Origin: Candidatus Goldiibacteriota bacterium
GTDB taxonomy: Bacteria > Oederibacteriota > PGYV01 > DYJU01
Direction of reading: 5' to 3'
Assembly: GCA_938034975.1 (NCBI GenBank)
Contig: CALHNI010000001.1
Location: forward strand, 105,807 to 169,806
Length of the DNA stretch: 64,000 nucleotides
Position numbers and translations under genes: made by a program. Shown one piece after another: positions 705-61,856 of this stretch (the stretch's first letter is position 1; each line of letters opens with the position of its first letter). The notes under the pieces are model-generated. The model made no database searches. It was not told the DNA's origin and saw only the letters and a program-made list of their open reading frames with translations.

Positions 705-1640
705 TTAAATTATTTTTTCTGCTGCCCTAAGTTTTGCACTTCTTGCCCTTGGATTTTCTTTTATTTCATCTGCCATAGGCACAACTGGTTTTTCAGTTAA
801 AACATTTATTGTTTTTTTATGTCCACATACACATGGCAACTTTTTATTTTCACATATACAATCCTTGGATTCCTTATTAAAAAAATTCTTTATAATTCTA
901 TCCTCTAGAGAATGAAAACTTATGATAACTATCCTGCCTCCTTTTTTTAATAGCTTAATTGATTTCTCTATACTGACTTTTAAATTTTCCAGTTCATTAT
1001 TTACCGCAATCCTCAATGCCTGAAAAACCCTGGTTGCAGGATTTATCTTTTCTTTTATTTTTTTTACCTTTTTTATAACTTCCAAAAGTTCCTTTGTTGT
1101 ATTTATTGGCCTTGACTTTACAATTTCATGGGCAATTCTTTTATAATATCTTTCCTCTCCAAACTCTTTTATAATTTGGGCAATCTCTGATTCTTTATAA
1201 TAATTCACTATATCAAAAGCGGTCAATTCTGTATCCTTATCCAAACGCATATCAAGTCTGCCTTCCTTTAAAAAACTAAATCCTCTTTCTGCCTTTTCCA
1301 AATGCATACTTGAGACACCTAAATCATATAATATTCCGTCAATTTCATTTATATCAAGCTGTTTTAAAATAACATCTATACTTTTAAAATTTCCTTTTAC
1401 CGGAATAAAGTTTTTAAAATCTTTCAGGATAGAAATTGCTATTTTTAAACTTTCCTCATCACAATCAATCCCTATAACTTTTGAATCTTCTTTAATCCGT
1501 TTTAATATTTCTTTGGAATGACCACCTAACCCCAAAGTTGCATCAACCCATATTCCTTTTTTCTTTTCTTCAATATCCAAATAAAAAATACTTTCCTTTA
1601 AAAGAACTGATTTATGTAAAAAATTATATGAGGTTTTCAA
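705..1640 (-). CDS. rsmH: 16S rRNA (cytosine1402-N4)-methyltransferase RsmH
   Basis: 311 aa with HKSVLLKE, DATLGLGGHS, DLGVSS.HL and SFHSLEDRIIK motifs, in dcw-cluster context. Confidence 0.95.
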   Translation of the reverse strand: MKTSYNFLHKSVLLKESIFYLDIEEKKKGIWVDATLGLGGHSKEILKRIKEDSKVIGIDCDEESLKIAISILKDFKNFIPVKGNFKSIDVILKQLDINEIDGILYDLGVSSMHLEKAERGFSFLKEGRLDMRLDKDTELTAFDIVNYYKESEIAQIIKEFGEERYYKRIAHEIVKSRPINTTKELLEVIKKVKKIKEKINPATRVFQALRIAVNNELENLKVSIEKSIKLLKKGGRIVIISFHSLEDRIIKNFFNKESKDCICENKKLPCVCGHKKTINVLTEKPVVPMADEIKENPRARSAKLRAAEKII

Positions 1641-1965
1641 ATTTTTTTATTGCCTCTTCTTCAGAGTCAAAAAATTCAAATTCCCCACAATAACCAGCAT
1701 AGATAAAAAGATTTGAAATATAATCGTTGGCACAAATAATTTTTATATCCCCGCCTAAATTTCTTACCCTTTCTTTTCTTTCGTTTAAATATTCTATTCC
1801 ACTTACATTTATATGAGTCACCTTTGAAAAATCAAGAATAAAGAAAAAATTTTCTTTTTCAATAAATGATGTTATAATCCCTTTTAACGCCAGTATATCT
1901 TCAAGATCAATATCCCCTTTCAAAATAAGAATTACTACTTTTTTAGTTTTGGTCGCTACAGCCAT
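1624..1965 (-). CDS. STAS-domain protein (anti-sigma-factor antagonist, SpoIIAA-like)
   Basis: Start trimmed to the ATG at 1965, which is preceded by aaaggaggtaatcaa. The product is about 113 aa (MAVATKTKKVVILILKGDIDL...FILDFSKVTHINVSGIEYL...) with the typical STAS layout. It overlaps the rsmH start by 17 nt. Confidence 0.7.
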   Translation of the reverse strand: MAVATKTKKVVILILKGDIDLEDILALKGIITSFIEKENFFFILDFSKVTHINVSGIEYLNERKERVRNLGGDIKIICANDYISNLFIYAGYCGEFEFFDSEEEAIKKFENLI

Positions 1966-1978
1966 TTGATTACCTCCT

Positions 1979-2419
1979 TTAATTATTATCCAGAGTATTT
2001 TTATCCCAGAGTTCAATTCTGTATTTTCTTCCTATAAAAATAACTTCTTTTTTTATACCTGCATATTCTTTTAATTTTTGCGGTATTATAATTCTTCCGC
2101 TTTTATCCATATTCACCTGATAGGTAAATCTCATTTTTTTTCTGATACGTGTATCTTTATTTGAATCCAGTTGTCCCTCCCAATATTCCTTCATTTCTTT
2201 TTCTTCATACTCCATTGCAATTTTACTCCATTTACTTATATGGAAAATATCAATATACTTTTTACCATCAGCTGTTTCTGATGCAGTTAAAATAAGACAT
2301 CTGCTTGTTTGTGGATCTGAAGACATCTCTATATCTTTTTTAAATTTTGCTGGTATATTAACTCTTTCTTTATCATCTAATATATGCTCATAACTTCCTA
2401 TAAAACCTATTTCCTGCAT
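1979..2419 (-). CDS. mraZ: Transcriptional regulator MraZ
   Basis: 146 aa with two SpoVT/AbrB-like halves (LDDKERVNIPAKF and MDKSGRIIIPQKL). It is the first gene of the dcw cluster. Confidence 0.9.
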   Translation of the reverse strand: MQEIGFIGSYEHILDDKERVNIPAKFKKDIEMSSDPQTSRCLILTASETADGKKYIDIFHISKWSKIAMEYEEKEMKEYWEGQLDSNKDTRIRKKMRFTYQVNMDKSGRIIIPQKLKEYAGIKKEVIFIGRKYRIELWDKNTLDNN

Positions 2420-2444: not shown

Positions 2445-2510
2445 CCCACTTTAACACCTAATAACCCACTTTACGGGCAAATTATACCCTATTTATCCCA
2501 CTTTTGTCAA
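2445..2510 (-). promoter_or_regulatory. mraZ promoter (TTGACA-N18-TATAAT) with phased GTGGG MraZ-box-like repeats
   Basis: Minus strand reads TTGACAaaaGTGGGataaataGGGTATAATttgcccgtaaaGTGGGttattaggtgttaaaGTGGGttaat. The -35 is at 2510-2505 and the -10 at 2486-2481. GTGGG boxes are at 2501-2497, 2469-2465 and 2449-2445, in roughly 10-bp phase. Confidence 0.6.
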
Positions 2511-2849: not shown

Positions 2850-3509
2850 TTATTTTAAAAAATAATTAATTTTAATAAAAATTTTTTTAACTAAAATAAA
2901 TATCCCCAAAAATGAGTTTTTTATAAAATAAATAAAATTTATTTTTTCAGATAATAAAGATAATATAAAAACAATTATTATTAAATTCATAAAAAATATA
3001 AATGACAGAGAAAATACAATATTGCTATCTTCTTTTAAATCGCTCTGGCTCTGCCTTAAAGAGTGTAAAGTCAGGGCAATATGAAAAGAAAGTGAAGAAC
3101 CAATAAAAAATGCTATAAAGGGGTAAAATTTTTTATCTGCGATAAGATATATGAGTATAAAAATAAAGGTGTATAAAGGAAAAAAATATGGTGCAAGTGA
3201 AATTAAAAAATTTGATTTGTTAATTACAACTTTTCCACCGTTTTCTGAAACCTCAATCTTTTTTGTTTTACCACCAAACAAAAATGCCCATAACATATGA
3301 GTTAATTCATGGCTCATAACGTGAATAAAAACAGGCTTGTAAAATACTATATGAACAATTAAATACACAGCAAATCCAAGTATAAAAAAAAATTCAATTT
3401 TTGTTGTTATTGAATAATTTTTAAATATTTTTATAAATTCCATTAAAGCAGATAATGAAAACAGTAAAAAAAAACCTGTCAAAAACAAATAGATTATTTT
3501 TTTTAACAT
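2850..3509 (-). CDS. Polytopic membrane protein with HExxH motif (putative zincin-type membrane metallopeptidase)
   Basis: 219 aa with about 6 predicted TM segments and an SHELTHMLW (HExxH) motif. It is the last gene of the adhesin/PilT operon. Confidence 0.45.
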   Translation of the reverse strand: MLKKIIYLFLTGFFLLFSLSALMEFIKIFKNYSITTKIEFFFILGFAVYLIVHIVFYKPVFIHVMSHELTHMLWAFLFGGKTKKIEVSENGGKVVINKSNFLISLAPYFFPLYTFIFILIYLIADKKFYPFIAFFIGSSLSFHIALTLHSLRQSQSDLKEDSNIVFSLSFIFFMNLIIIVFILSLLSEKINFIYFIKNSFLGIFILVKKIFIKINYFLK

Positions 3510-3518
3510 CTAATGATA

Positions 3519-5795
3519 TTATCCGAGGTCCTTTAATTTTGCAATTCTTTCGTTTAATTCTTCTAATCTTTTTTTTGCACTTAAATGTTCCGGATCAATT
3601 TTTAATATTGTCTCAAATTTTTCCTTTGCTTCTTTTAATTTATTCTGTTCATAAAGGTCAATTCCGATTTTATACATCTGCTGGAGTTCCTGTTCAACAA
3701 GCGGTTTTATATCTCTTAAATATTTAAGTGCAAATTCATTGGTTGGATCAATTTTTAATATTTCATTAATTTTTTCCAAAGTATCAATTATCCTGTTATT
3801 CCTGTAATATGCGTCTACTTTTTCCATAAGATCTTCCAGACGTTTTTTTAAAATTTCTTTTGCCTTTTCCAGGTAATCTTTTAATTTCTTTTCCAATGGC
3901 CTTTTCTCAATAGCTTTTTTCCATTCTTTTATTGCTGTTATAAAATCTTCTTCTAAAAATTTCACAAGTCCTTTTTGAAACGCTTCTGCTGTTATTGCTG
4001 ATTCTACATCTGTTCCACCGAAAGTTTCTGCCATCAGATTATTATAAACTTCGTCGTATTTTTGTTTTATTTTTTCCTCATTTGGATTTAAATTTAACGC
4101 ACGTTTTAAATACGAAATTGCTTCCAGAGCATTTCCCGCATTAAATGCCTCTACTCCTTTGTTAAATAATTCTTCCTGTTCTTTTTTCCCGGCTATCTCT
4201 TTTAATTTTTGTTTTGCACTCTCAATATACGTTATTGCATATGAGTTATTTGGTTCTATTTTTAAAATTTCCTGCCATTTTTTTATAGCTTCTTCTATTT
4301 TTCCTGTTTTATAAATCTCCACCCCTTCATTTAGCAAATTGGTTATATTACCAACAACCTGAATTTTTTCTTCAGCGCTTTTAATATATGCCTTAAGTTG
4401 GGCATTATCCGGATCCAAATTTAACCCTTCCTGCCATTTAACAATTGCTCCTTTTATATTACCCTTTTTATAAATATTTAACCCCTCTAACATTATTGCC
4501 TTTATCTGTTCCTGAAACTGTTCACTATTTAATTTTTGCTGAATCATCTCAAAAGCTTTTGCTATTTCCTGATTATCAGGATATTTACTTCTTAATTTAC
4601 TGTAAAATTCATAAGCTTCCTTGTAATTTCCTGCTGATAATAAAGATCTTCCCTGTTTTAACTGGTTTTCAAATTCTTTTTTTGTTTGTTCTTTGAGCAT
4701 ACTATCCAGTATTGATTGCGCCGATGCTTTGCTTGATGATATACCTTTTAAAGCAAGGTCAATTTCCTGTTGAGATGTTGCATTTTTCTTTGCTTCTTCC
4801 AAAGTTATAAGCCCCTTTTTATAAAGTGATATTAATGACTGGTCAAAAGTTTGCATCCCAAATTGTCCACCATCCCTTATTAAATCCTTTATTGAATTTA
4901 ATTTTAATTCTTCTATATATCCACTCACAGTTGGCGTTACAACCATGATTTCAACAGCAGGAACACGACCCGCTCCATCTGCTTTTGCAACAAGCCGTAA
5001 CGATATAACAGCACGTAATGCATCTGCAAGTTGTATCGCAATCTGACGTTGTTGTTCTTTAGGAAAAAAATCAAGTATCCTGTTGATCGTCTGTATGGTG
5101 TCTATCGTATGCAAAGTAGAAAAAACCATATGTCCTGTTTCAGCTGCACTTATCGCTGTTGCCACGGTTTCTTTATCTCTCATTTCTCCGATTAAAATTA
5201 CATCAGGATCCTGTCGCAAAACATATTTTAAAGCAGTTGAAAAATTTTCAGTATCAAGTCCTACTTCCCTTTGCGATATGCTTGCTTTTTTATCCGAATG
5301 AACAAATTCAATTGGGTCCTCTATTGTAACTATATGACAATTATAATTTTCATTTATTTTATCAATCATTGCAGCAAGAGTTGTTGATTTTCCTGTACCT
5401 GTTGCTCCTGTTACCAAAACCAAACCACGCGGATAAAGAGCAATTTCATTTAATATCACAGGTAAATTTAATTCTTCTAATGTTGGTATCTTAATCGGTA
5501 TTGCTCTTAAGACAACTTCCAACTTTCCCATCTGCCTGAATGCATTCGCCCTGAATCTTGCAACACCTTCCAAATTATACGCAGCATCAATTTCATTTGA
5601 TTCTTCAAATTTTTTTCTTTGTTTTTCATCCAATATGAAATATATTGCTTCTTTTAAATCACTATTTGATAATATGCTCATATCAAGCGGTAAAAGTTTC
5701 CCATCAATTCTTAAAAGCGGTGGTCTTCCTTCTTTTAAATGCAAATCCGATGCTCTTTTTTCTATCATTAAATGCAAAAGGTCTTTAATGTTCAT
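3519..5795 (-). CDS. pilT: PilT-family type IV pilus retraction ATPase fused to a roughly 400-aa C-terminal TPR-like repeat region
   Basis: 758 aa. Residues 1 to about 345 look like PilT (ASDLHL, Walker A GATGTGKSTT, Walker B-type ILIGEMRD, then HMVFSTLHT). The remainder is 6-7 repeats of the type IYK.G.I..AI.KWQE.L.I.P.N. Confidence 0.85.
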   Translation of the reverse strand: MNIKDLLHLMIEKRASDLHLKEGRPPLLRIDGKLLPLDMSILSNSDLKEAIYFILDEKQRKKFEESNEIDAAYNLEGVARFRANAFRQMGKLEVVLRAIPIKIPTLEELNLPVILNEIALYPRGLVLVTGATGTGKSTTLAAMIDKINENYNCHIVTIEDPIEFVHSDKKASISQREVGLDTENFSTALKYVLRQDPDVILIGEMRDKETVATAISAAETGHMVFSTLHTIDTIQTINRILDFFPKEQQRQIAIQLADALRAVISLRLVAKADGAGRVPAVEIMVVTPTVSGYIEELKLNSIKDLIRDGGQFGMQTFDQSLISLYKKGLITLEEAKKNATSQQEIDLALKGISSSKASAQSILDSMLKEQTKKEFENQLKQGRSLLSAGNYKEAYEFYSKLRSKYPDNQEIAKAFEMIQQKLNSEQFQEQIKAIMLEGLNIYKKGNIKGAIVKWQEGLNLDPDNAQLKAYIKSAEEKIQVVGNITNLLNEGVEIYKTGKIEEAIKKWQEILKIEPNNSYAITYIESAKQKLKEIAGKKEQEELFNKGVEAFNAGNALEAISYLKRALNLNPNEEKIKQKYDEVYNNLMAETFGGTDVESAITAEAFQKGLVKFLEEDFITAIKEWKKAIEKRPLEKKLKDYLEKAKEILKKRLEDLMEKVDAYYRNNRIIDTLEKINEILKIDPTNEFALKYLRDIKPLVEQELQQMYKIGIDLYEQNKLKEAKEKFETILKIDPEHLSAKKRLEELNERIAKLKDLG

Positions 5796-5819
5796 TATGA
5801 AAATCCCTCTAATTTAATT

Positions 5820-6821
5820 TTAAAAAGACATCGTTACCCCAAAACGATGGATTGAATTGGTCAGAAGTATTTTTAGATATTGCTGATATGTATAATCAAT
5901 AGAAAAACCTTCCATATAGATACTTCCGCCTCCTGAGATGATATATGCGTCATTTTTCTGATCAATTGAAATACCTCCGCGTAATGCAACTTTTTTAATC
6001 TGCTCCATTTGATTCAAATCAACTGCATATTCCAACCCGGCATTATAAAATTCTATCTCAGGGGAGCCTTTGTCATTTTCCAACAATTTTACTTCGCCTA
6101 TTATTAAAAAGTTATTTGTTATTCCATAATAAAAACCGCCTTTTAATATGAATGGAAGTTCTTCTTTTAAACCTGCCTGCCAGTTTAATTGATTTAAAAT
6201 ATTCTGTGCCATTATTCCCAGATTTAAATTTTCTTTTACGGCAAACATCAAAGCAGCATCCAGTCCATAACCTGAAGCTCCAATTTTTTGCCCAGAAAGA
6301 GTTAAACTGCTGTTTATTGCCATATACTTTGCATTTAATCCAATTGATAATTTCGGATATTTATATTTGTTTAATCCTAAAAATTTATCAATCTGGTATG
6401 CCCATGAAACGACTATTACATATTCATTCCAGTTATTATCAGAATCTCCTGTGAAATCTCCAGCAATATTTACAGTTGTGTAATTTAAAGCAGCTCCGAT
6501 TGCACCATATCCGGACAAATCACCCTGCGCATAACTGAGTAAATATTTTGAAATCTTGCCAGCAGAAGCAATGTCAAAAAGAGATGGTATATAAGTAAAA
6601 CTTAAACTTTTGGCTTTCGGATCAAAAAGCGACATGGCAGCAGGATTATAAATTGCCGCATTTGCATCATTTGCAAGCGCTGTAAATGCACCCCCCAAAC
6701 CAGCTGCTTTTGTCGCATCATAACCCTCTGAAAAACTGCCACCTAAAAAATTAGATTCCGCATAAATTGAAGTAAAAATTATTATTATTGCAAAATAAAT
6801 TTTTAAAAATTTTTTAATCAT
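5820..6821 (-). CDS. Outer-membrane beta-barrel protein, PorV/PorQ-like
   Basis: 333 aa with a signal peptide and an N-terminal AAGLGGAFTALANDANAAIYNPAAM motif typical of PorV/PorQ/UPF0164-type barrels. It has alternating beta-strand character and ends in F. Confidence 0.55.
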   Translation of the reverse strand: MIKKFLKIYFAIIIIFTSIYAESNFLGGSFSEGYDATKAAGLGGAFTALANDANAAIYNPAAMSLFDPKAKSLSFTYIPSLFDIASAGKISKYLLSYAQGDLSGYGAIGAALNYTTVNIAGDFTGDSDNNWNEYVIVVSWAYQIDKFLGLNKYKYPKLSIGLNAKYMAINSSLTLSGQKIGASGYGLDAALMFAVKENLNLGIMAQNILNQLNWQAGLKEELPFILKGGFYYGITNNFLIIGEVKLLENDKGSPEIEFYNAGLEYAVDLNQMEQIKKVALRGGISIDQKNDAYIISGGGSIYMEGFSIDYTYQQYLKILLTNSIHRFGVTMSF

Positions 6822-6835
6822 TTGTTATTTCTCCG

Positions 6836-9800
6836 TTATCTGTTTATTACTATCATTCTCGTTTTCATTATTTCTGAATCTGTTTTCTTTATTGATATTT
6901 TCATTATATAAAGTCCATTTTTTAAATTAGCACCTTTATCATTTTTGCCATCAAATAAAAAATATGCTAAATTAACAGGAGTTATACCACCAAGCCAGGT
7001 GTAATTGTAAAAATAAGAAGCATCTTTTGGATAATTTATTGTTCTTACAAGTGTGCCATATAAATTATAAATATTTATTTTTATTTCTTTTGCCTCAGTG
7101 AGGTTTTCAAGATATATACCATCTTTATCATAAAAATAAATTACTGCATTTCCCTTTTCAGGATTAAATACTTTATCACTTCTTAAATCATCAGTATACT
7201 TTTTAATCGCAACAATTGTTGGCGGAACAGAATACAAAAGTGCAAAAATTGTGCCTTGCGCAAGGTTCGTTATTGTTGCTTCTATGTAATGGTCCGAACC
7301 ACTCATTACAGGATTACTTATATTTGTTATCCTGTTCCATGTGACACCGTCATAATACCATAAAGTTAAATCATTTTCAGTGAGTTTTAAATTATTAAGT
7401 ATTGCAATATCAGTATTTGTATAATGCATTCTTAATGTTGCTGAACATAAAGTCGGATTAAAAGTCAATGGCATATTCTGGGCTGTAAAACTTACTGCTG
7501 TTGCTATTAAAGCATAAGTCCCAGGTGGAGATGGTGGAGAAGAGACAGCAGTTACTGTTATACTTTTAGGTGAAATTGTATTGCCCATTGAATTTACAAT
7601 CCCTGATGTTGTTTCAGTAAAAACAGAAATTATCATATAGGTAGTTGAATTTTCTCCTGTTCCGGAAAGATTTATATAAGTAATCCCTGCTGTTGTAATA
7701 TAAAATGTATATGAATAAACACCTGAATACCCGTTTTGTGAAACAACACTGACAAAAACAGTATAATTACCATCTGATAATACTGTATTTGGAGTAAAAA
7801 CCAATAAATTTGTTCCTGTTGTATGCACAACACTGCCATTTACATAATTACCTGTTGTATTATTTCTAACTGTTATGGTAGAAAGTGTCCAATCAACATC
7901 AGATGAACCACCGGGTATTACTGTGGCATTAATTTTTGACACAAGAAAATTTATCTGTGTGGATGTTGATGGTGAAAGTTCATTTGTCGTTCCTGATGGC
8001 GACTGAACCGATAAATTTGTAACAACAGGAATTGATGTGTCTTTTATATCAAAAGTAAATGTTTTTGATTGTCCTATATTATAATTTGCATCAACAGGCA
8101 CAACTGTATAAGAATAACGACCACCAATTGTCAGATTATTATCCGGTATATAATAAATTTCCCAGGATTTAGTTCCCGGATTACCTGCATTCCATGCAAC
8201 CCTTCCAGGTACAGGATTGCCATAAGGATCTTTCAATGTAAATGTAGAAAGGTTGGTAGGACCTGCGCCAACCCCTTCATCAGTTATCATTACTTTTAAA
8301 TAATTTGATGGTCCAAGAACATTGGGTTCAACAATTGAACCATCTGATGGATATTCAGAATAAGGAACTATTTGTGGTGGTGTTGTATCAGGTAAAGGAA
8401 CTCCAGGATCCTGTTCTACAATAAAAGAACACGTTCTCTGCGAAGAACTTAAACCATAACCTCGTTCATCACTTATAATATTATAACTTTCATCTTCAAA
8501 ATAACTTGGCATTACGTGCAATTTATAATAACTCAATGTTTTTGTTGTTCCGCCACAATCTACTGTTTCCTGCCAGATATAAGATGCTGTGTCCTCACAA
8601 TATATTGGTAAAATATATTTACCAACAAGAATACCCCTTACAGCACCAATATATACTCCTGGTGATATTGATTTAGAATAAAAAATGAAATCTGCACTCA
8701 TTTTAAAAACACCATCATCATAAGTCCCATCTGTAAAAGAATTAAAAAATGCCATATCCCAGTCATTATCTTTATCATCATCACCTTTTGTATAAACAGT
8801 TAATGTATCGCCAGAGCATAAATCCACAGGTAGATCAGGACCTGCATAAACATTACCACTCATTGCCAGCAAATCAGCAAATTGTGGAAATGTTATATCT
8901 TTATAAGATAAATCCATATCATAATTAGATGAAGAATCTTTTTTGAAAGTTTCAACCAGACCACCGGAGCTATTATAGATTTTCACATCATGATAAAGCC
9001 ATGGATAATTCCTATAATCATGACTTATGCCAGGAGTTTCTCCAAGTGTATAATTAAATCCAAGATTTGCAAGATTCTGACGGGTTGCATTTTTCAACTC
9101 CGAATTAACCTTTAATCTTACTATAGTCATTGGCACCCCAACATTTGTGTATTTTGCGTCAATTGAATAAATATCTGTCCATATTTGAACAGTAGTTAAC
9201 TTTAAAGGGCCAGTATAACTTCTTCCTGTATTTCCTGCAGAATCAGTAATTTCAAAAGCATACGTAAAATCTCCATCTGTTTGCATTGTTCCTGAATTAC
9301 TCAGTCCATCCCATAAAATCGGCTGATTAAACCCATAATAACCAGTAGCAGAAAGAGTTTTTATAGTAACACTATTATAAAAAATATTAAGCTTAACTGA
9401 ACAATTTTCAGTAAGGTAATAATAAAACTGTAAAAGTTCTGTCTCTGGGTTGTATGGATTTGGACTTGCATTAACCAGTTCAATTGAAGGTCTTATTCCA
9501 TCTATTGATAATTTTGACGGGCTGATAAAACCATCATTACTGGCTTTTATATTACTAACCGCAAAATGTCCTACAACAGATGCGTTTTTTAAATTAAACT
9601 TATATGATTCCCTTACAAGAAATTTTGTATTATAAACTCCATCACCAGCAACTGTATCATTATGTAATGTCATATCTCCATCATCAAATAAAAGTATTCC
9701 ATAGATAGAAGTTCCTATATCTATTGAAGCATCACCGCCTGTAATCATACTTCCTTCTGCAACCGAAAAAGAAGAATATTGTAATGTTAAATAATCAGCA

Positions 9801-10186
9801 CAATTTTTGCCTGCTTTTAGGGTTGCATTATTTATCATCAAAGTATTCTGGGACGCATTTAAAGGATTGGGTGTATAGGTTGTTATTTCCCATGTTCTTT
9901 CACCATCATAAACATACATAAATCCAGGAAAAGAACCCGGGAAACTCGGACTATAAAGATAAATAGCAGATGCTGTAATGGTTGCCACTGTAACATCAGT
10001 ATATGATTTTGTAATGTCAACTGCTGCTAATCTGAAATAAATATAATCACCTATTTTAGCGGTCTGAGCAGTAGGAGTAATTGTATGGTCAAGCGAAGTT
10101 ATTACATATACTGAAAATACATTTGATTTTAAAATAAAAAGAATAAAAAAAGCACTTAACAAAAGTTTCTTTACATATTCCTTCAA
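6836..10186 (-). CDS. Large secreted surface protein with Ig-like and FlgD-Ig domains and a T9SS-type C-terminal sorting-like domain
   Basis: 1116 aa with a TTG start (10186-10184) preceded by AGGAGG, and a signal peptide. There is an internal FlgD-Ig-like segment (SPNPYNPETE...WDGLSNSG) and DT(T/S)(P/I)P Ig-domain boundaries. The C-terminus (INIYNLYGTLVRTI...FDGKNDKGANLKNGLYIMKI...) resembles Por_Secre_tail/FlgD-Ig. Confidence 0.7.
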   Translation of the reverse strand: MKEYVKKLLLSAFFILFILKSNVFSVYVITSLDHTITPTAQTAKIGDYIYFRLAAVDITKSYTDVTVATITASAIYLYSPSFPGSFPGFMYVYDGERTWEITTYTPNPLNASQNTLMINNATLKAGKNCADYLTLQYSSFSVAEGSMITGGDASIDIGTSIYGILLFDDGDMTLHNDTVAGDGVYNTKFLVRESYKFNLKNASVVGHFAVSNIKASNDGFISPSKLSIDGIRPSIELVNASPNPYNPETELLQFYYYLTENCSVKLNIFYNSVTIKTLSATGYYGFNQPILWDGLSNSGTMQTDGDFTYAFEITDSAGNTGRSYTGPLKLTTVQIWTDIYSIDAKYTNVGVPMTIVRLKVNSELKNATRQNLANLGFNYTLGETPGISHDYRNYPWLYHDVKIYNSSGGLVETFKKDSSSNYDMDLSYKDITFPQFADLLAMSGNVYAGPDLPVDLCSGDTLTVYTKGDDDKDNDWDMAFFNSFTDGTYDDGVFKMSADFIFYSKSISPGVYIGAVRGILVGKYILPIYCEDTASYIWQETVDCGGTTKTLSYYKLHVMPSYFEDESYNIISDERGYGLSSSQRTCSFIVEQDPGVPLPDTTPPQIVPYSEYPSDGSIVEPNVLGPSNYLKVMITDEGVGAGPTNLSTFTLKDPYGNPVPGRVAWNAGNPGTKSWEIYYIPDNNLTIGGRYSYTVVPVDANYNIGQSKTFTFDIKDTSIPVVTNLSVQSPSGTTNELSPSTSTQINFLVSKINATVIPGGSSDVDWTLSTITVRNNTTGNYVNGSVVHTTGTNLLVFTPNTVLSDGNYTVFVSVVSQNGYSGVYSYTFYITTAGITYINLSGTGENSTTYMIISVFTETTSGIVNSMGNTISPKSITVTAVSSPPSPPGTYALIATAVSFTAQNMPLTFNPTLCSATLRMHYTNTDIAILNNLKLTENDLTLWYYDGVTWNRITNISNPVMSGSDHYIEATITNLAQGTIFALLYSVPPTIVAIKKYTDDLRSDKVFNPEKGNAVIYFYDKDGIYLENLTEAKEIKINIYNLYGTLVRTINYPKDASYFYNYTWLGGITPVNLAYFLFDGKNDKGANLKNGLYIMKISIKKTDSEIMKTRMIVINR

Positions 10187-10210
10187 AAATTCCCTCCTGA
10201 ATCTTTTTCT

Positions 10211-10469
10211 GGTAGTGTGAAAAGTTTTAACGCTTTTTACTTAAAAATCCTTTTATTCATATACTTATGTTGCCTTTGTTCCCCCTTTATCAAAGGGGGA
10301 TGATTTTAGGGGGATTTACATCCATTATCTTTTTCTCGCTTTCTTTTAATTTAAAATCTCCCCTACTCCCTCTTTATAAAAGAGGGATAAATGTATATTA
10401 TTTTCTATACTTTTAGTATATATTTTAATCTCTGCCTTCTTTATTTTTCATAGAACTTTTCACATTACC
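10211..10469 (-). mobile_element. Family-A MITE, copy A4 (short form, 259 bp)
   Basis: On the minus strand it starts ggtaatgtgaaaagtt and ends aacttttcacactacc. It is flanked by an 8-bp direct repeat ctttttct at 10203-10210 and 10470-10477. It is near-identical in layout to copy A3. Confidence 0.85.
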
Positions 10470-10490
10470 CTTTTTCTCTTTATTTTTTAA

Positions 10491-10518
10491 ATAATAGCAC
10501 ATTTTTATAAAAAGTCAA
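10491..10518 (-). promoter_or_regulatory. Candidate sigma70-type promoter (TTGACT-N16-TATTAT) upstream of A4 and the 1116-aa gene
   Basis: Minus strand reads gcTTGACTttttataaaaatgtgcTATTATttaaa. A start here would place the A4 element in the 5' UTR. Confidence 0.4.
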
Positions 10519-10775
10519 GCAGAGATAAAATTGCCAAAATATTCAGTAACTTGTATAAAAATTGATTTAATAAAGTTTCTTTGGAATTTTTCTCTCGCAT
10601 CCTCAAATCTTCATAGTTATATTTTTTCTTTTATTACCGCAACCTTATAGTGCACTTGTATAAAATTTCGCAGGCATAAAGTCTGCACCTACATCGTTTT
10701 ATTTTTATTTCTCCTATTAGCAAAGGGGGACTAAAGGGATTCCCTGCACCTTCGCCTGTCAATTTTTTATTTAAA

Positions 10776-10936
10776 CTTGAAAATCGTTAGGAAATTACGA
10801 TTTTCAGGAGAAAAAAATAAAATATATTAAAAAACTTATAAAACAACACTTATGTTTTATTATTTATTTTAAAAGCTGACGAATAAAAGTAATGCGTCAT
10901 AAAAATAAAAACGCATTTTCTAATGCGTTTTTACGG
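10776..10936 (-). repeat. Family-B repeat, copy B2 (161 bp, inverted orientation)
   Basis: The reverse complement reads ccgtaaaaacgcattagaaaatgcgttttt...gtgttgtttt...ctcctgaaaatcgtaatttcctaacgattttcaag. Confidence 0.75.
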
Positions 10937-11138
10937 TATGATATTGGCATTTTATATATTTTTAATTTATGCTGAAGTAATTTTTTTTCATTGAGATTTA
11001 AAAATTAAATTATAAATTTACTAACGAGAAATTCTTTAATGCTATCTAAAATCCACACCCTATTACCAATAGTATTATTAATCAAATATTTTTACACCTC
11101 AAAAACAAAATTTTCACATTTTTATTATTAAAAATATC

Positions 11139-11168
11139 TTGTGTTTTATATTAAATAAATTGTATAAT
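11139..11168 (+). promoter_or_regulatory. Candidate promoter (TTGTGT-N18 with TG-extended TATAAT) for the 11234 gene
   Basis: cTTGTGTtttatattaaataaatTGTATAATaatg lies about 65 nt upstream of the AGGAGG-ATG at 11234. Confidence 0.35.
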
Positions 11169-11233
11169 AATGTAAACTTATTTATTAAATTAAACGTCAT
11201 AAATAAAAAAATAAAAAAAAGGAGGTTTTAATT

Positions 11234-17035: not shown

Positions 17036-18802
17036 TTAAATTTTTATTTTATCAATATACTGACTTAATGGTTTATCTGAAAGGGTTTCTCTTAAAACTT
17101 CATCAAGCGTAGTTATACCCATTTTCATTATTTTTATTGCTGATTCTCTTATTGTCATCATTCCCATATCCCATGCAACACGCTTTAATTCATTTAAGCT
17201 GCCTTTTTTAAATATGACTTCTCTTATTTTCATATTTATTGGTAATACTTCATAGGCAGCTATTCTTCCTTTATAACCTGTATAATGACAATTCGGGCAT
17301 CCTCTTCCTTCATAATATTCAGAACCTTCTAACAACTCAGGCGGAATTCCATATTTTTTTGCTTTTAAAAAATCTATTTCTTTTATTTTTTCCTTACAAT
17401 TTTCACATATACGCCTGACCAACCTTTGTGATATTGAAATTAAAACAGAAGAACCAACATATATAGGGTCAATTCCCATATCAACAAGACGTGTTATTGT
17501 TGTTGGCGCATCATTGGTATGCAAAGTAGAAAGAACAAGATGTCCTGTTAATGCTGCCTTAATTGCAATTGATGCTGTTTCTTCATCCCTTATTTCTCCA
17601 ACAAGCATTACATCAGGGTCTTGCCTTAAAAATGCGCGTAATACATTTGCAAAAGTAAGCCCGGCTGCAGGATTTACCTGTATCTGAATAATATGCGGCA
17701 ATCTGTATTCCACCGGATCTTCAACTGTTAATATATTATCATGCGGGTCATTTATATGAGATAAAGCACCATAAACTGTTGTTGTTTTACCACAGGCAGT
17801 AGGTCCAGTAATTAAAATCATTCCATATGGATTCTGAAGTGCTTTTTCCAGTTCTCTTTGTTGTTCTTCAAACAGACCTAAATCTTTTAAAGCAAGACTC
17901 TGAGCTTCCTGATTTATAATACGCATCACAATATTTTCTCCCCATATAGAAGGGACAACAGAGACACGGAGGTCAACTTCTTTATTATTGGAAAGTTTAA
18001 ATTTAACCCTTCCGTCCTGTGGTAATCTTTTCTCAATTATATTCATCCCTGCCATAAGCTTTATTCTTGAAGCCAGAGGTTTTTTAAATTGAATTTTAGG
18101 CGGTGGCATCTCCACCAAAGCACCATCTATCCTGTATCTTAAAACGATCTTTTTTTCATAAGGATTGATATGTATATCCGATGCCCTTTTTCTGACTGCA
18201 TCTTCAATGATATAATTTACATATTTAACAACAGGACTGTGTTCTCCTTCGATATCTTCTTCTACGCCTTCTTCTTCTTTTATTTTTAATTCTTCCTCAA
18301 TAATTTCTATATCTCCTGTTGTGTCTCCTATATTTTTTAATGTTTCATCCAATGTTGAAGAACCCAAATAATATTTTTCCAAAGCAGCATTTAATGCGCT
18401 GTCAGTTGTTACAACAAAACTTATATCTTCATCTTCTCCAAGGTTAAGTTCGTATTTTAAATTACTCTGCAATGAAGGGTCCAGTGGATTTGATGTAGCA
18501 AAAATTATTTTTCCTGGCTTTTTTTCAATTGGGATAATTTTATATTTTTGGGCAATATCCTTTGATAAAATTTTTATTACTTCTTCTTCAATATGCAAAA
18601 TACCAACATCCACAAATTTTGTTCCAACCTGCAAAGCCAGAAAATGATATAAAACATCCTCTGTTATATATCCTAATTTTACCAAAATAACACCTAAGGA
18701 TTCGCTTGTTTTTTCCTGCTCTGATATTGCTTTATCAAGCTGCTCTTCTGTTATCATGCCTTCTTCTAATAATATTTCGCCTAATTTTTTCTGTTCATTC
18801 AT
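17036..18802 (-). CDS. PilB/GspE-family type IV filament assembly ATPase with MshEN-type N-terminus (copy 2)
   Basis: 588 aa. The N-terminus has KLGEILLEEGMITEEQLDKAISEQ and LGVILVKLGYITEDVLYHFLALQ. Walker A is GPTACGKTTT. Other motifs are VGEIRD, LVLSTLHTNDA and the tetra-Cys CENC...CPNC. Confidence 0.9.
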   Translation of the reverse strand: MNEQKKLGEILLEEGMITEEQLDKAISEQEKTSESLGVILVKLGYITEDVLYHFLALQVGTKFVDVGILHIEEEVIKILSKDIAQKYKIIPIEKKPGKIIFATSNPLDPSLQSNLKYELNLGEDEDISFVVTTDSALNAALEKYYLGSSTLDETLKNIGDTTGDIEIIEEELKIKEEEGVEEDIEGEHSPVVKYVNYIIEDAVRKRASDIHINPYEKKIVLRYRIDGALVEMPPPKIQFKKPLASRIKLMAGMNIIEKRLPQDGRVKFKLSNNKEVDLRVSVVPSIWGENIVMRIINQEAQSLALKDLGLFEEQQRELEKALQNPYGMILITGPTACGKTTTVYGALSHINDPHDNILTVEDPVEYRLPHIIQIQVNPAAGLTFANVLRAFLRQDPDVMLVGEIRDEETASIAIKAALTGHLVLSTLHTNDAPTTITRLVDMGIDPIYVGSSVLISISQRLVRRICENCKEKIKEIDFLKAKKYGIPPELLEGSEYYEGRGCPNCHYTGYKGRIAAYEVLPINMKIREVIFKKGSLNELKRVAWDMGMMTIRESAIKIMKMGITTLDEVLRETLSDKPLSQYIDKIKI

Positions 18803-18824: not shown

Positions 18825-20534
18825 TTAACCTTCTGCTTCTGCTGTAACTCTGATTATCTCTTCAGAAGTTGTAATCCCATTTTTCCATTTTTCTAAAGCC
18901 ACACTTCTTAATGTTCTCATTCCATCCTTTTCTGCCTGTTTTCTTATCTCATTAAGGTCTGCCCTTTTAAATACCAGTTCTGCCAATTCCGGGGTCATAG
19001 GCATTATTTCATATATGGCAACTCTTCCTTTATAACCTGATCCACTGCAAGCTGGACAGCCTTCCCCAACATAAAGTGTTGCATTTTTAATGAAATCTCT
19101 TGTTATCTGTAGTTTTTGAAGTTCATCATCATCCGGGACATATTCTTTTTTACATTTCTGACAAACTTTTCTCATAAGTCGTTGTGCCACAACTATTCTT
19201 AATGCCGAACCAACATAAATCGGATCTATCCCCATGTCAATTAACCTCATTATAGTGGATGGTGCATCATTTGTATGTAAAGTGGAAAATAAAAGATGCC
19301 CGGTTAATGCAGCTTTAATTGCAATATCTGCTGTTTCTTTATCCCTGATTTCTCCGACCATCATTATATTCGGGTCCTGCCTTAAAACAGCCCTCAAAGC
19401 AACTGAAAAATCAAAATTTATTTCATGATTCATCTGTATTTGAATTATACCAGGCAATTGATATTCAACAGGATCTTCAAGAGTCATTATATTTCTTGAT
19501 ACATCATTAATTGTGGAAAGAGCTGAATAAAGTGTAGTTGTTTTACCGCTTCCTGTAGGTCCTGTATGTAAAATAAGTCCATATGGCGACTGAATTGCAT
19601 CTTTGTAAATTTCAAGTTCCTTTGGTTCAAAACCAAGTTTAGAAAGATCAAGCATAAGTCCTTCCTGGTCCAAAATTCGCATTACTACATTTTCGCCATA
19701 TATACTTGGTAATACAGATACCCTTAGGTCAATTATTTTATTTTGAACCTTAATTTTTATTCTTCCGTCCTGAGCTCTTCTTTTCTCCATAATATCCATA
19801 CGCGACATAACCTTTATTCTTGAAACAATTGCATTCCTGTATTGTTTGGGTGGTGATTTTTGTGTTTGCAAGACTCCATCAATCCTGTATCTTACAACCA
19901 TATTTTTAGGAAAAGGATTCAAATGAATATCTGATGCTCGCAATCTTACGGCATCTGCAATTAAAGCATTTGTAATTTTTATAACTGGTGCATCATTTTC
20001 AGTATAACCGCCTTCTTCTATCATATCTTCTTCTTTAAAATCAGTAGAATCGGTTCCTTTTAATATTTCTTTCAAACTCTCATCAACTTGTAATTTTTCC
20101 GAAATACCATAATACATATTTAAAGCATTTTTAATTGCTGATTCTGTGGCAACCACAAATTTTATTTCCATTTCTTTGGGCAATAAAACTTTTTCTCTTA
20201 GTTTTAAGATCAGGTGTTCATCAGGTTCTGATGTTGCAAAAACAATTGTATTATCCGTCTTCTCATAAGGAATAATACTAAACTCTTCTGCAACTTCTTT
20301 TTTAATCATTTTGATAAGTTCATCAGGTATGGTTTTATCCATAAAATCAACATAATCAACCCCAAACTGTATTGCAAGGAAATAAAATAATGCATCTTCT
20401 GTAATTGCTCCCATTCTTACCAAAATACGACCAAGTGGTTCTCCGGTTTTTTGTTGTTCATCTATTGCCTGCTTCAATTGCTCCTCTGTTATAAGATTTT
20501 CTTCTCTTAACAAATCACCTAATCTTTTCGCCAT
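18825..20534 (-). CDS. PilB/GspE-family type IV filament assembly ATPase with MshEN-type N-terminus (copy 1)
   Basis: 569 aa. The N-terminus has RLGDLLREENLITEEQLKQAIDEQ and LGRILVRMGAITEDALFYFLAIQ. Walker A is GPTGSGKTTT. Other motifs are VGEIRD, LLFSTLHTNDA and CQKC...CPAC. Confidence 0.9.
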   Translation of the reverse strand: MAKRLGDLLREENLITEEQLKQAIDEQQKTGEPLGRILVRMGAITEDALFYFLAIQFGVDYVDFMDKTIPDELIKMIKKEVAEEFSIIPYEKTDNTIVFATSEPDEHLILKLREKVLLPKEMEIKFVVATESAIKNALNMYYGISEKLQVDESLKEILKGTDSTDFKEEDMIEEGGYTENDAPVIKITNALIADAVRLRASDIHLNPFPKNMVVRYRIDGVLQTQKSPPKQYRNAIVSRIKVMSRMDIMEKRRAQDGRIKIKVQNKIIDLRVSVLPSIYGENVVMRILDQEGLMLDLSKLGFEPKELEIYKDAIQSPYGLILHTGPTGSGKTTTLYSALSTINDVSRNIMTLEDPVEYQLPGIIQIQMNHEINFDFSVALRAVLRQDPNIMMVGEIRDKETADIAIKAALTGHLLFSTLHTNDAPSTIMRLIDMGIDPIYVGSALRIVVAQRLMRKVCQKCKKEYVPDDDELQKLQITRDFIKNATLYVGEGCPACSGSGYKGRVAIYEIMPMTPELAELVFKRADLNEIRKQAEKDGMRTLRSVALEKWKNGITTSEEIIRVTAEAEG

Positions 20535-58023: not shown

Positions 58024-59367
58024 ATGAGAAAAAAATATATAAAAACATTATTTATAGTTTTCTTTATTACTATCTTTTTTAAGTATATCTTTTGTTTTGA
58101 TATAAAAACAAAACTTGAAGAATTATATTCGGCAGAAAAAAATTTTACCATTAAAAAACACATAAAATTAGCATTACAATACTATGAAAAGGGTTTTAAA
58201 AAAAGTTTTTTAGAAGAAATCAGGTTACTTGCCCAGATAAAAAGTGAATACAGGGATATTATTAGCCAGTTAGGGACAGAGTTTAATACCGATATGACTG
58301 ATAATGGTTTTAGTAATTCCTCCAATGAAAATAAAAAAAGTTTTCTTATAAACAAATTTGAAAAAGTTAATAAATATTATAAAGAAAGTAAATTATCAAA
58401 TGCAATTGTTGAATTGCAAAGTATTTTAGAATTGGATAAAGAAAACAAAACAGCAATACAGATGTTAAATAACATAAAAGAAGAAGAATTTGTTTTTGAT
58501 GATTCAAAGCCATTTCAGAATCTGGTTAAAGAATTATATGATAAAGGAATGGTTTTTTACAGAAAAGGGTCATATAAAGATGCAATTGAAAAATTTGAAA
58601 AAGCAAAAGAACTTGATCCAACAAATACTTTTGTGAAAAGATTTTTAAATTTATCCAGGGAAAGGTTAATAAATATTAAAAGAAAAGAAGACGAAGACAG
58701 ATTGATAGAAGAAGCAAATAAATTAAGGACAGAAGGAGAAATTAAAAAATCAAGAAGTTTATATGAAAAAGTTTATACCTATAATAAAAATAACAAACAG
58801 GCAGAATTTTATTTAAATGAATTTAACAGAATAAGTGATGAACTTTATAAAGAAGCCTTTGAACTTAAAAATAACGATAAATTAAAAGAAGCTTATAGTA
58901 AGGTAAAAGAAGCTTTGGAATTTAATGAAAAAAATTTTCCTGCCTCCAATCTTGAAAAAGAATTAAAGATGAAACTTGCTGTTTATAATGAAAGAGAGAG
59001 GATTCAGAAAAAAGTCAATCAACTATATAACAAAGGGGTATCATGTTTTGAAAAAGGAAATTATGAATGTGCATGCAAGTATTGGGAAGAAGTTCTTAAA
59101 ATAAATCCTGATGATGAACAGACAAAGAAAAATATTGAGATTGCAAAGGAAAGAGTTAAAGAATTTGAAATAAAAAAAGAAACAAAAATTAAAAAATTAA
59201 TTTCTGAGGCAGAAATTTTAATTGGTCAGGGATTACTTGAAAAAGCCAAAAGCAAATATGAATATGTTCTTAGGTTGGATGGCGATAATCTTAAGGCAAT
59301 ACAGGGAATAAAAAAGATAGAAGAATTAAATATGATAAAAGTGGGTGAAAAGATTGAAAAAAGATAA
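58024..59367 (+). CDS. TPR-repeat protein with N-terminal membrane anchor/signal
   Basis: 447 aa with N-terminal hydrophobic LFIVFFITIFFKYIFC. It has repeats such as FYRKGSYKDAIEKFEKAKELDPTN and CFEKGNYECACKYWEEVLKINPDD. Confidence 0.7.
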   Translation: MRKKYIKTLFIVFFITIFFKYIFCFDIKTKLEELYSAEKNFTIKKHIKLALQYYEKGFKKSFLEEIRLLAQIKSEYRDIISQLGTEFNTDMTDNGFSNSSNENKKSFLINKFEKVNKYYKESKLSNAIVELQSILELDKENKTAIQMLNNIKEEEFVFDDSKPFQNLVKELYDKGMVFYRKGSYKDAIEKFEKAKELDPTNTFVKRFLNLSRERLINIKRKEDEDRLIEEANKLRTEGEIKKSRSLYEKVYTYNKNNKQAEFYLNEFNRISDELYKEAFELKNNDKLKEAYSKVKEALEFNEKNFPASNLEKELKMKLAVYNERERIQKKVNQLYNKGVSCFEKGNYECACKYWEEVLKINPDDEQTKKNIEIAKERVKEFEIKKETKIKKLISEAEILIGQGLLEKAKSKYEYVLRLDGDNLKAIQGIKKIEELNMIKVGEKIEKR

Positions 59368-59509
59368 ATCTGCTCAGACAATTGTTGAATACATAATTAT
59401 TATTTCTTTTGTTTTTATTTTAAGTGTTCTTTTAACAAGATTTTTTTCTATTATGCTTGCAAATTTTTTAAAAAATTTTTTATTTATAATTTATTTGCCG
59501 GTGCCATAA
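59345..59509 (+). CDS. Candidate unannotated Flp-like small pilin ORF (54 aa, GTG or TTG start)
   Basis: Own translation gives (M)KRLKKDKSAQTIVEYIIIISFVFILSVLLTRFFSIMLANFLKNFLFIIYLPVP*. It carries the same [KS]xQxx[VL]E[YF] plus hydrophobic-helix signature as the four downstream Tad-type proteins. The RBS is weak and the ORF is below the track length cut-off. Confidence 0.4.
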   Translation: MKRLKKDKSAQTIVEYIIIISFVFILSVLLTRFFSIMLANFLKNFLFIIYLPVP

Positions 59510-59525
59510 AAAAGGAGGTGGGAAA

Positions 59526-59723
59526 ATGAAAAAAATTTTAAAAGGCAAAAAGGCGCAAGGATTGGTGGAGTATATACTTATCATTGCATTAATTGCGATT
59601 TTGGTTATTGGTGGGGTTAAATTATTTGGTGGGAAAGTCAAAAAATCTTTTAAAGATGCAGCAGAAACAATAAGCGAAGAAGTAAATACTAGTATTGAAA
59701 ATAAAGATGTAATTGAAGATTAA
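59526..59723 (+). CDS. flp: Flp/Fap-family pilin
   Basis: 65 aa with a strong RBS (aaggaggtg). The sequence MKKILKGKKAQGLVEYILIIALIAILVIGG has the typical Flp leader and hydrophobic helix. Confidence 0.8.
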   Translation: MKKILKGKKAQGLVEYILIIALIAILVIGGVKLFGGKVKKSFKDAAETISEEVNTSIENKDVIED

Positions 59724-59734
59724 GGACACAAAAA

Positions 59735-60289
59735 ATGACATACAACACAGGGAAAACAAAAGCACAAAGTTTGGTTGAATTTTGTTTAATTCTTCCGATT
59801 TTTCTTTTGTTTTCCCTGGGACTAATACAGTTTTCTCTTATAATATTTAATATATTCATGGTTAAATATACAGCATATATCTCAGGAAGAGTTGCTGTTG
59901 CTTATTACAATGCTGATGAAAAAATTGAAAATGCAAAACAGGCAGATAAAATTATGAAATTTATAATGTCTATATTAAATACAGAAGCGACTTTTTCTTT
60001 AAATACAGTTAAAAATATTTTGCTGAATTTTGTCATAGAAAAAATAGAAAAGAGCGAAATTGAAATAGAAAAAATTAATATTACAAATTCAAAAGAAAAA
60101 TATATAAACGTAAAAGTTAAATATTATATGCCATTAAAAGTTCCTTTTGTTAATAAAATTTTTGGATTTTTCAATAAAGATGAGGACATCGGTTATTTTA
60201 AAAAATTAATTTTATTCAAATTAAAAGAACCGCATTATCTGATAAAGGCAAATGCTGTAATGAGGTGTCCTTTTTATGAAGAAGAATAG
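59735..60289 (+). CDS. tadE: TadE-like pseudopilin
   Basis: 184 aa with an N-terminal KAQSLVEFCLILPIFLLFSLGLIQFS (TadE motif). Confidence 0.75.
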   Translation: MTYNTGKTKAQSLVEFCLILPIFLLFSLGLIQFSLIIFNIFMVKYTAYISGRVAVAYYNADEKIENAKQADKIMKFIMSILNTEATFSLNTVKNILLNFVIEKIEKSEIEIEKINITNSKEKYINVKVKYYMPLKVPFVNKIFGFFNKDEDIGYFKKLILFKLKEPHYLIKANAVMRCPFYEEE

Positions 60290-61361: not shown

Positions 61362-61364
61362 ATT

Positions 61365-61850
61365 ATGAAAAACAAAAATAAATCTCAGGCACTTTTGGAA
61401 TTTGTTATTTTAATACCTTTATTGATATTTTTTTTTATTGGTATATGGCAATTTGCCAGTATTTTTATAACTAAAATTAAACTTGCCATTTTAGAAAGAG
61501 AAATAATGATGTATATAAATTCTGATATTGATGAAGAAGAAAAGGTGGATGAATTTATAAAAAGTTATGCTGAAATTGCAGGATTAAAGTATAATAATTT
61601 AAAAGTTGAATTTAAAGGCGGTTTTGGGCAAGCATTAAAAGGTAATATAATAACAAATTTATTTAATAAATTTATAAGTATCAGAGTTATAATAACATAT
61701 AAAGAAAAATTACTCCCCCCTTTTTCATTATTAGCCGGTAAAGAAAATATTGTTCTAACAACTGATTTGCATACTGCCCATGGTGGGAGTTTTAATTTAA
61801 CAGCTGAAAATTTAATAGAAAAAATTGTTAATATTTTTAATCAACAGTAA
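61365..61850 (+). CDS. tadE: TadE-like pseudopilin (second copy)
   Basis: 161 aa with an N-terminal KSQALLEFVILIPLLIFFFIGIWQFASIF. Confidence 0.72.
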   Translation: MKNKNKSQALLEFVILIPLLIFFFIGIWQFASIFITKIKLAILEREIMMYINSDIDEEEKVDEFIKSYAEIAGLKYNNLKVEFKGGFGQALKGNIITNLFNKFISIRVIITYKEKLLPPFSLLAGKENIVLTTDLHTAHGGSFNLTAENLIEKIVNIFNQQ

Positions 61851-61856
61851 ATAATT

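Follow-up and report, generated by a model that had tools for sequence, protein, structure and literature searches.

The subject of this report is a four-gene operon on the minus strand of a stretch of Candidatus Goldiibacteriota DNA (assembly GCA_938034975.1, contig CALHNI010000001.1, positions 105,807 to 169,806; these 64,000 nucleotides are called the window below, and positions are counted from its first letter). Its first two genes encode a large protein with a C-terminal domain (CTD) resembling those of type IX secretion systems (T9SS) and an outer-membrane barrel of the PorV/PorQ type. The reading that we prefer, to which we give a probability of roughly 55%, is that these two form a cognate cargo/carrier pair for surface display, co-expressed with a pilus-retraction ATPase in an operon that is held throughout Goldbacteria.

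In order of transcription, the four open reading frames (ORFs) are the large CTD protein (1116 aa, TTG start, 6836-10186), the barrel (333 aa, 5820-6821), a PilT-type ATPase fused to a tail of tetratricopeptide repeats (TPRs), here PilT-TPR (758 aa, 3519-5795), and a membrane protein with an HExxH motif (219 aa, 2850-3509). They lie 14, 24 and 9 nt apart, as the initial annotation had read them. The adjacency also holds in relatives. The same four genes, in the same order, are present in all 12 complete loci of the clade that were examined, including every one retrieved through PilT-TPR (L004, L007, L008 and L009) or through the HExxH protein (L010, L012 and L014-L017); of two further records, L013 is the same contig as L009, and L011 is a 4.4-kb contig that holds, of the operon, only the 3' end of PilT-TPR and the HExxH gene. 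Full-length orthologues share 39-46% identity with the window's large protein, 43-48% with its barrel, 64-69% with PilT-TPR and 56-64% with the HExxH protein, which marks the four ORFs as real genes and not products of chance. Gaps between the genes of orthologous loci, that between the large gene and the barrel gene included, are mostly -4 to 50 nt, and the gap between PilT-TPR and the HExxH gene is -1 to 13 nt in most loci, while the flanking genes vary from locus to locus. PilT-TPR homologues of ~750-760 aa with 62-100% identity come from Candidatus Goldbacteria/Goldiibacteriota wherever a name is given. The public records of L011, L012 and L014-L017 say “uncultured Spirochaetia bacterium,” probably a taxonomic mislabel. 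No conserved terminator was present between the barrel and PilT genes among 10 orthologous loci; the barrel gene has a terminator-like hairpin at its 3' end (5849-5829), which was considered as an internal attenuator and rejected, as it is not conserved in the same 10 loci.

The large protein (6836..10186) is a putative cargo that appears to be secreted. It begins, behind a strong Shine-Dalgarno sequence (AGGAGGG, ahead of the TTG start), with MKEYVKKLLLSAFFILFILKSNVFS, which by eye resembles a signal peptide. The AlphaFold2 (AF2) model, built with 23 orthologues, has a mean predicted confidence (pLDDT) of 80.6 and is entirely beta, a chain of immunoglobulin (Ig)-like sandwiches. A Foldseek search with this model returned generic multi-Ig matches only, with TM scores below 0.15, and identified no enzyme or lectin domain; matches to Big_13 and to choice-of-anchor X both stayed under their cut-offs. 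Full-length or near-full-length orthologues number 24, all of them in the Goldbacteria clade. The last ~115 residues (aa ~1002-1116, 6839..7183, minus strand) form a sorting-type beta-sandwich similar to FlgD_ig and to T9SS CTDs. On the large protein, FlgD_ig reaches 38.6 bits against a cut-off of 27 (aa 1030-1066). The type B CTD model TIGR04131 gives 15.2 bits against 35, CHU_C gives 17 bits against 27 on the isolated domain, and a TIGR04183 search of the large protein reported nothing at E ≤ 0.1. Across 15 diverse C-terminal domains combined into one profile, the conserved motifs are NP.., IY..G.LVR and WDG.ND.G..V.NG.Y; FlgD_ig matches 15 of the 15 members, Por_Secre_tail 10 and CHU_C seven. 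Searched against the PDB, this profile matches Ig domains of FlgD and also the CTD of PorU, the sortase of T9SS (6za2_A residues 1063-1154, E 4e-5).

The barrel (5820..6821), whose N terminus is likewise signal-peptide-like, has a 14-stranded FadL/PorV fold and is proposed to carry or anchor the CTD. The NCBIfam PorV_fam model (NF033709) aligns with it end to end (model positions 14-326 of 326) at 67.9 bits, the PorV equivalog model gives 25.5 bits against a cut-off of 250, and the PorP/SprF model TIGR03519 does not match it. A profile of 16 barrel sequences has a single match in the PDB, Flavobacterium PorV (6h3i_F, E 9e-7). The AF2 model (14 strands, pLDDT 74.5) has FadL, PorV (8gl6_F, 18% identity) and TodX as its best Foldseek matches, at E 1e-9. 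An exhaustive profile search places the barrel in a superfamily of 10,631 representative clusters at E ≤ 1e-3, within which its own orthogroup is tiny, with seven clusters at E ≤ 1e-30.

The pairing of these two genes extends far beyond Goldbacteria. A metagenome scan with two of the closest non-orthologous barrels yielded 80 distant loci (L090-L169). Upstream sequence was present for 83 of their barrel ORFs, and directly before 40 of these, on the same strand, stands an ORF of 600 aa or more. For 29 of those 40, and thus for at least 29 of the 83 barrel ORFs, the upstream ORF ends in a match to a CTD hidden Markov model (HMM) that was built from Goldbacteria sequences only. The stop codon of the large gene and the start codon of the barrel gene commonly overlap by 4 nt in these distant cassettes. 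Cluster names of the distant barrels point to Saganbacteria/Margulisiibacteriota, Elusimicrobiota, Neomarinimicrobiota and Cloacimonadota. In two loci with 65% GC, L090 and L091, the barrel gene directly follows one for a full-length homologue of the large protein (HMM E 1e-64 and 1e-72); the L090 pair sits between secA and aroA, and neither locus has a PilT-TPR or HExxH gene. A PilT homologue lies within 8 kb in none of the 80 distant loci, and no recurrent ATPase was found downstream of their barrels. Among the distant cassettes, the barrels of L099 and L100 exceed the PorV_fam cut-off (110 bits versus 90), and the tail of one Marinimicrobia cargo passes TIGR04183 (23.9 bits, cut-off 23). 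The conserved core is the first two genes only, the large protein and the barrel. The claim that a CTD cargo stands next to a PorV-type barrel, made in the initial annotation for this locus, is thus strengthened, since the pair recurs as a widespread cassette. Outside Bacteroidota this cassette is apparently undescribed in the literature that we searched, and a search for papers on PorV, T9SS or FlgD-Ig CTDs in Goldbacteria, Elusimicrobia and Margulisbacteria found nothing relevant.

Goldbacteria themselves have a second cassette of this kind, convergent to the operon in eight loci (L004 13672-17730, L007 15400-19441, L011, L012 and L014-L017) and not in this window. Its first gene encodes a protein of 777-843 aa whose CTD is T9SS-like (PorU CTD E 2e-9; TIGR04183 21.7 bits, cut-off 23), and its second a fusion of 562-566 aa in which a PorV-like barrel (PorV_fam 82 bits) is joined to a TPR domain; in Marinimicrobia, a barrel-TPR fusion has 912 aa. 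As a separate observation, one Neomarinimicrobiota cluster (L143 11-11139; also L098, L112, L123 and L133) conserves the gene order around its cassette: a CHASE2-adenylate/guanylate cyclase, a T2SSB-like gene, a small secretin (430 aa; STN+N0+Secretin), a 1371-aa FG-GAP cargo with a T9SS-type CTD, the 912-aa PorV-like barrel-TPR fusion and a conserved 148-aa protein. The cyclase was considered as a link between the lineages and is taken as coincidence; it is directly upstream of the Marinimicrobia cargo, and a homologue occurs in a single Goldbacteria genome, at 3 kb from the module. In one Goldbacteria genome, L009 (920-8918), the single barrel is preceded by three successive proteins with CTDs (a CLIPPER-domain protein of 576 aa, an SBBP/DUF5122 protein of 866 aa and the large protein), a hint that several cargo proteins may share a barrel.

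The third protein is, judged by its alignments and motifs, a genuine PilT-family ATPase. Its hexameric-ATPase-type domain (aa 1-350, 4746..5795, minus strand) scores 469 bits with TIGR01420 pilT_fam over aa 3-344 (cut-off 319), and the end-to-end alignment of aa 3-349 with Thermus PilT 5fl3 has an E value of 8e-108. The catalytic motifs align with those of solved PilT (Walker A GATGTGKST, Walker B DPDVILIGEMRD, His box TGHMVFSTLHT), and in these respects the protein looks like a working retraction ATPase. Because it has neither a signal peptide nor a transmembrane segment that we could find, it is expected to be cytoplasmic. The tail (aa 351-758 plus stop codon, 3519..4745) matches multiple TPR families, with repeats at 363-758; in the PDB, only designed TPR proteins match it. 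A second orthogroup of PilT-TPR proteins (766 aa, ~45% identity) has a tail homologous over its full length (31% identity, E 4e-72). Its genes (L005 10001-22301, and L006) stand directly after prmC and before a TPR-rich cluster of chemotaxis type, comprising cheR, cheW, a P-II protein, response regulators, cheC, cheD and a methyl-accepting chemotaxis protein, and no barrel or CTD protein is present at these loci. The possibility that the PilT-TPR tail is a specific relative of the barrel-fused TPR tails was rejected, as the similarity between them (E 1e-10 to 1e-14) is no better than that to unrelated TPR proteins, for which the values are 3e-9 (a 447-aa protein in the window) and 3e-21 (an FCPU426 protein).

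The fourth protein (2850..3509) is polytopic and M50B-like, with ~6-7 hydrophobic segments in all and the motif HELTH at aa 67-71 (nt 3297-3311), after one such segment. It scores 23.2 bits with Peptidase_M50B (PF13398), against a cut-off of 26, and one orthologue has a precomputed PF13398 match; no NCBIfam family and no PDB relative was found for it. H67, E68, H71, H143, D157 and E160 are invariant. Relatives are numerous, with 573 confirmed matches among the candidate stretches examined, and occur in FCPU426, Firestonebacteria, Verrucomicrobiota (including Akkermansia muciniphila), Nitrospirota and Planctomycetota. In 72 loci examined from outside Goldbacteria, the HExxH gene never has the other three operon genes beside it. 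In ~33 mostly verrucomicrobial loci, a PTS-IIA(Ntr)-like (ptsN-like) gene and argS come next. The neighbors were considered as a clue to function and proved uninformative: ptsN-like and argS are a housekeeping context, and the trio that is common upstream of the operon in Goldbacteria (an unknown gene, an M17 leucyl aminopeptidase and another unknown gene) was not found outside the clade.

One Goldbacteria locus, L018 (7197-10666), separates these components. Exactly three genes, those for the large protein, the barrel and PilT-TPR, are missing, and the HExxH gene comes 56 nt after the gene that usually stands before the large gene. The upstream trio is present, and the locus is nested in the clade, with 70% identity between its M17 peptidase and the one in L004, and 65-67% between its HExxH protein and the ones in L004 and L014. 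Nothing besides L018 speaks positively for PilT-TPR traveling with the cassette, and L018 is a single event. Since it keeps the HExxH gene, the HExxH protein does not depend on the other three genes. Because the protein is also widespread in other contexts, we judge it to be an independent, putative M50B-type protein that merely shares the transcript.

How might the operon work? T9SS carriers provide the close analogue on which we base the cargo-carrier reading. In T9SS, PorV uses its extracellular loops to bind type A CTDs (PMC10994853), barrels of the PorP/SprF kind bind the type B cargo encoded beside them and anchor it (PMC9143113, PMC12618676), and cognate carrier genes beside their cargo are known in Flavobacterium (same sources). 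By this analogy, the large protein would be exported by Sec as an all-beta, multi-Ig surface protein, and its FlgD-Ig/T9SS-type CTD would be recognized by the PorV/PorQ-family barrel encoded 14 nt downstream. The barrel would receive the CTD at the outer membrane and carry or hold the large protein on the cell surface. The translocon through the outer membrane is not encoded at the locus and may be an SprA-type channel elsewhere in the genome or another route. PilT-TPR is most likely a motor for pilus retraction or for regulation, expressed together with the adhesin pair and lost along with it in one lineage, and would not be the engine of its export.

Several observations weigh against this reading. 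The Por_Secre_tail model (PF18962) stays below its cut-off of 27 bits, with 16.4 bits for the whole large protein and 23.2 bits for the CTD alone, and the barrel falls short of the curated PorV_fam cut-off of 90 bits. Taxon labels of metagenome-assembled genomes can be wrong, as “Spirochaetia” on Goldbacteria loci illustrates. The strict retention of PilT-TPR in the operon across the phylum argues for more than accidental neighborhood, as does the joint absence in L018 of exactly the large protein, the barrel and PilT-TPR.

A rival possibility is that all four proteins make up one machine. In it, the large adhesin would be exported, anchored or released through or at the PorV-like barrel under the power or control of PilT-TPR, and the HExxH protein would act as an inner-membrane partner or processing protease. 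The operon is found throughout the phylum with tight or overlapping junctions, L018 lacks just the three genes concerned, and the Marinimicrobia cassettes adjoin a secretin and a T2SSB-like gene, a second link to parts of the type II secretion/type IV pilus kind. Moreover, T9SS transport needs energy to pull the carrier-cargo complex off the translocon (PMC10994853), so an energizer is conceptually required. PilT-TPR, however, is apparently cytoplasmic, and no PilC/M/N/O-like link across the envelope is encoded nearby; direct energizing is disfavored because such an envelope-spanning partner is absent. Orthologous pairs of large protein and barrel exist without PilT-TPR, the distant loci have no PilT gene within 8 kb (0 of 80), PilT-TPR and the HExxH protein are each found alone elsewhere, and the latter persists in L018 where the other three genes are absent. 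We therefore consider a single machine quite improbable. Of the export module that the initial annotation had put forward, the cargo and its PorV-like carrier stand, whereas a PilT-driven machine that includes the HExxH protein is not supported, the evidence for it being adjacency in one phylum only.

A second alternative would make the locus more ordinary. If a canonical T9SS is encoded elsewhere in these genomes, the large protein could be one of its usual substrates, the barrel a usual paralogue of the PorV/PorQ/PorP type, and PilT-TPR and the HExxH protein unrelated neighbors. The matches of the CTD to Por_Secre_tail, CHU_C and the PorU CTD would fit, as would PorV being the only PDB sequence match of the barrel and the precedent of Flavobacterium carrier genes adjoining cargo. 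Marinimicrobia and Cloacimonadota, which have the cassette, belong to the FCB (Fibrobacterota-Chlorobiota-Bacteroidota) group, in which T9SS is reported in those portions of the literature that the search returned. The same portions, however, place T9SS in Bacteroidota or the FCB superphylum only, and Goldbacteria are described as siblings of Elusimicrobia and Firestonebacteria (PMC7031533). No paper linking PorV or T9SS to these phyla was found, the 64-kb window has no T9SS core gene among the ORFs scanned, and the family cut-offs are not reached. On balance this alternative seems unlikely. It is very improbable that the barrel is instead a FadL-type transporter of hydrophobic molecules, adjacent to the large gene by chance. 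FadL and TodX are among its top Foldseek matches, Pfam Toluene_X matches weakly, and there is a conserved N-terminal motif containing NPA; but the profiles select PorV rather than FadL in the PDB and PorV_fam rather than FadL in NCBIfam, the barrel is ~90 residues shorter than FadL, and its recurrent, often overlapping position right after CTD proteins in many phyla is not expected of a lipid transporter.

A broader idea is that a CTD protein and its own PorV-like barrel form an autonomous display or secretion cassette that works without T9SS across many diderm phyla, including non-FCB ones (Goldbacteria, Elusimicrobiota and Margulisbacteria, for example), and onto which lineages have bolted different envelope or energy modules. 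We regard it as tentative and, at present, doubtful. If it were true, these modules would be PilT-TPR in Goldbacteria, the small secretin with the T2SSB-like protein in Marinimicrobia and the barrel-fused TPRs elsewhere; T9SS carriers and CTDs would descend from, or specialize, a much older cargo-carrier system, and the Goldbacteria operon would be the first form of that system linked to ATP.

CTD signals and PorV/PorP-type carriers count as hallmarks of type IX secretion in Bacteroidota and the FCB group. The same cargo-carrier gene pair, its two genes coupled in translation, is seen here in many uncultured phyla, some of them labeled outside FCB. Either T9SS is far wider than has been described, or the cargo-carrier pair is an older, portable display unit that uses other export routes. 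A practical rule follows for genomes of microbial dark matter: a barrel encoded directly downstream of a CTD protein predicts a cognate carrier-cargo pair and a surface adhesin. Only the embedding of PilT-TPR in such an operon throughout the phylum could hint at a novel means of energizing events at the outer membrane.

The surroundings of the operon bear on its limits. The operon region is AT-rich (~22-34% GC). A promoter-like site, TTGACT-16-TATTAT with a TG (10491..10518, minus strand), lies ~305 nt upstream of the large gene; it is a consensus match only, in a region whose total number of such sites is not above shuffle expectation, and is a possible candidate for the operon promoter. Upstream of the large gene (10187-11233), ~1 kb without a credible ORF precedes plus-strand genes; it contains a hairpin with a 13-bp stem followed by a T-run (minus strand, 10934-10905). 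An Rfam search of the operon and its vicinity, including 10187-11233, matched no RNA element. At the other end, a perfect sigma-70 consensus, TTGACA-18-TATAAT (2481..2510, minus strand), stands in the 430-nt gap before mraZ, which implies that the four-gene unit stops at 2850 and that the dcw genes start afresh. Downstream follow mraZ, a STAS gene, rsmH and ftsL. The STAS-domain ORF (130 aa, TTG start, 1624-2016, minus strand) lies between mraZ and rsmH and overlaps both, which is unusual where a dcw cluster begins.

The Pfam scan of the window covered nearly all ORFs with 100 aa or more, and none was a T9SS core gene or PilC, PilM, PilN, PilO or PilQ. To this extent the initial annotation, which had reported no such genes nearby, was right, but it missed other genes of pilus type. 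Two tandem PilB/GspE-type ATPases with T2SSE plus MshEN domains (588 and 569 aa; 17036-18802 and 18825-20534, minus strand) lie ~7 kb upstream of the operon, beside a GHMP-kinase-like gene and a periplasmic-binding-protein gene, with no PilC or pilin genes. TadE-like (184 aa) and TadG-like (361 aa) genes are at 59.7-61.4 kb, ~50 kb from the operon. They belong to a plus-strand cluster (58024-62594) in which a 447-aa TPR protein precedes them and two unknown ORFs follow, and which looks like part of a Tad/Flp-type pilus cluster.

Each of the four proteins resembles a known system and departs from it. The HExxH protein, which the initial annotation had rightly called polytopic, is like M50B or site-2-protease-type proteins (PF13398) in its HExxH at the end of a transmembrane segment, its polytopic form and its conserved downstream His, Asp and Glu residues; unlike members of that family, it does not reach the threshold (23.2 versus 26 bits). 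The ATPase, for which a PilT domain with a TPR tail had likewise been foreseen, is like PilT/PilU (Thermus 5FL3, Geobacter 6OJX) in the full-length alignment of aa 3-349 and in its retained catalytic motifs. It is unlike them in its ~400-aa C-terminal TPR tail, which is kept in Goldbacteria (at least 62% identity) and in the 766-aa group (~45%), and in the position of its gene, within an adhesin/barrel operon and not with pilus genes. The barrel, whose assignment as PorV/PorQ-like the 14 strands, the FadL/PorV fold and the sole PDB match bear out, shares with PorV (LptO; PDB 6H3I, 8GL6) a 14-stranded FadL-type fold at 18-19% identity in Foldseek alignments. PorV, however, is a general carrier for many substrates, whereas the window barrel appears dedicated to one adjacent cargo; no SprA partner for it was identified among the window ORFs scanned.

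With type B cargo and PorP/SprF, the likeness is one of gene organization. The window departs from them in its components: its barrel scores as PorV/PorQ family, its CTD is best described as FlgD_ig or type A-like, with the type B models below threshold, its operon also includes a PilT-TPR ATPase and an HExxH protein, and the host phylum is not known to have a T9SS. That the CTD of a 1116-aa Ig-rich protein would score as a T9SS/FlgD-Ig sorting domain had been anticipated, and FlgD_ig above its cut-off, the all-beta model and the PorU match agree with it. In SprB-SprF of Flavobacterium johnsoniae and PG1035-PorP of Porphyromonas gingivalis, as here, a CTD surface protein is encoded directly upstream of its own ~300-aa barrel, and the locus has the same gene order, spacing and one-cargo-one-barrel logic. 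The barrel-TPR fusions of the related cassettes, finally, recall the PorP-PorE complex, in which PorE has a TPR module.

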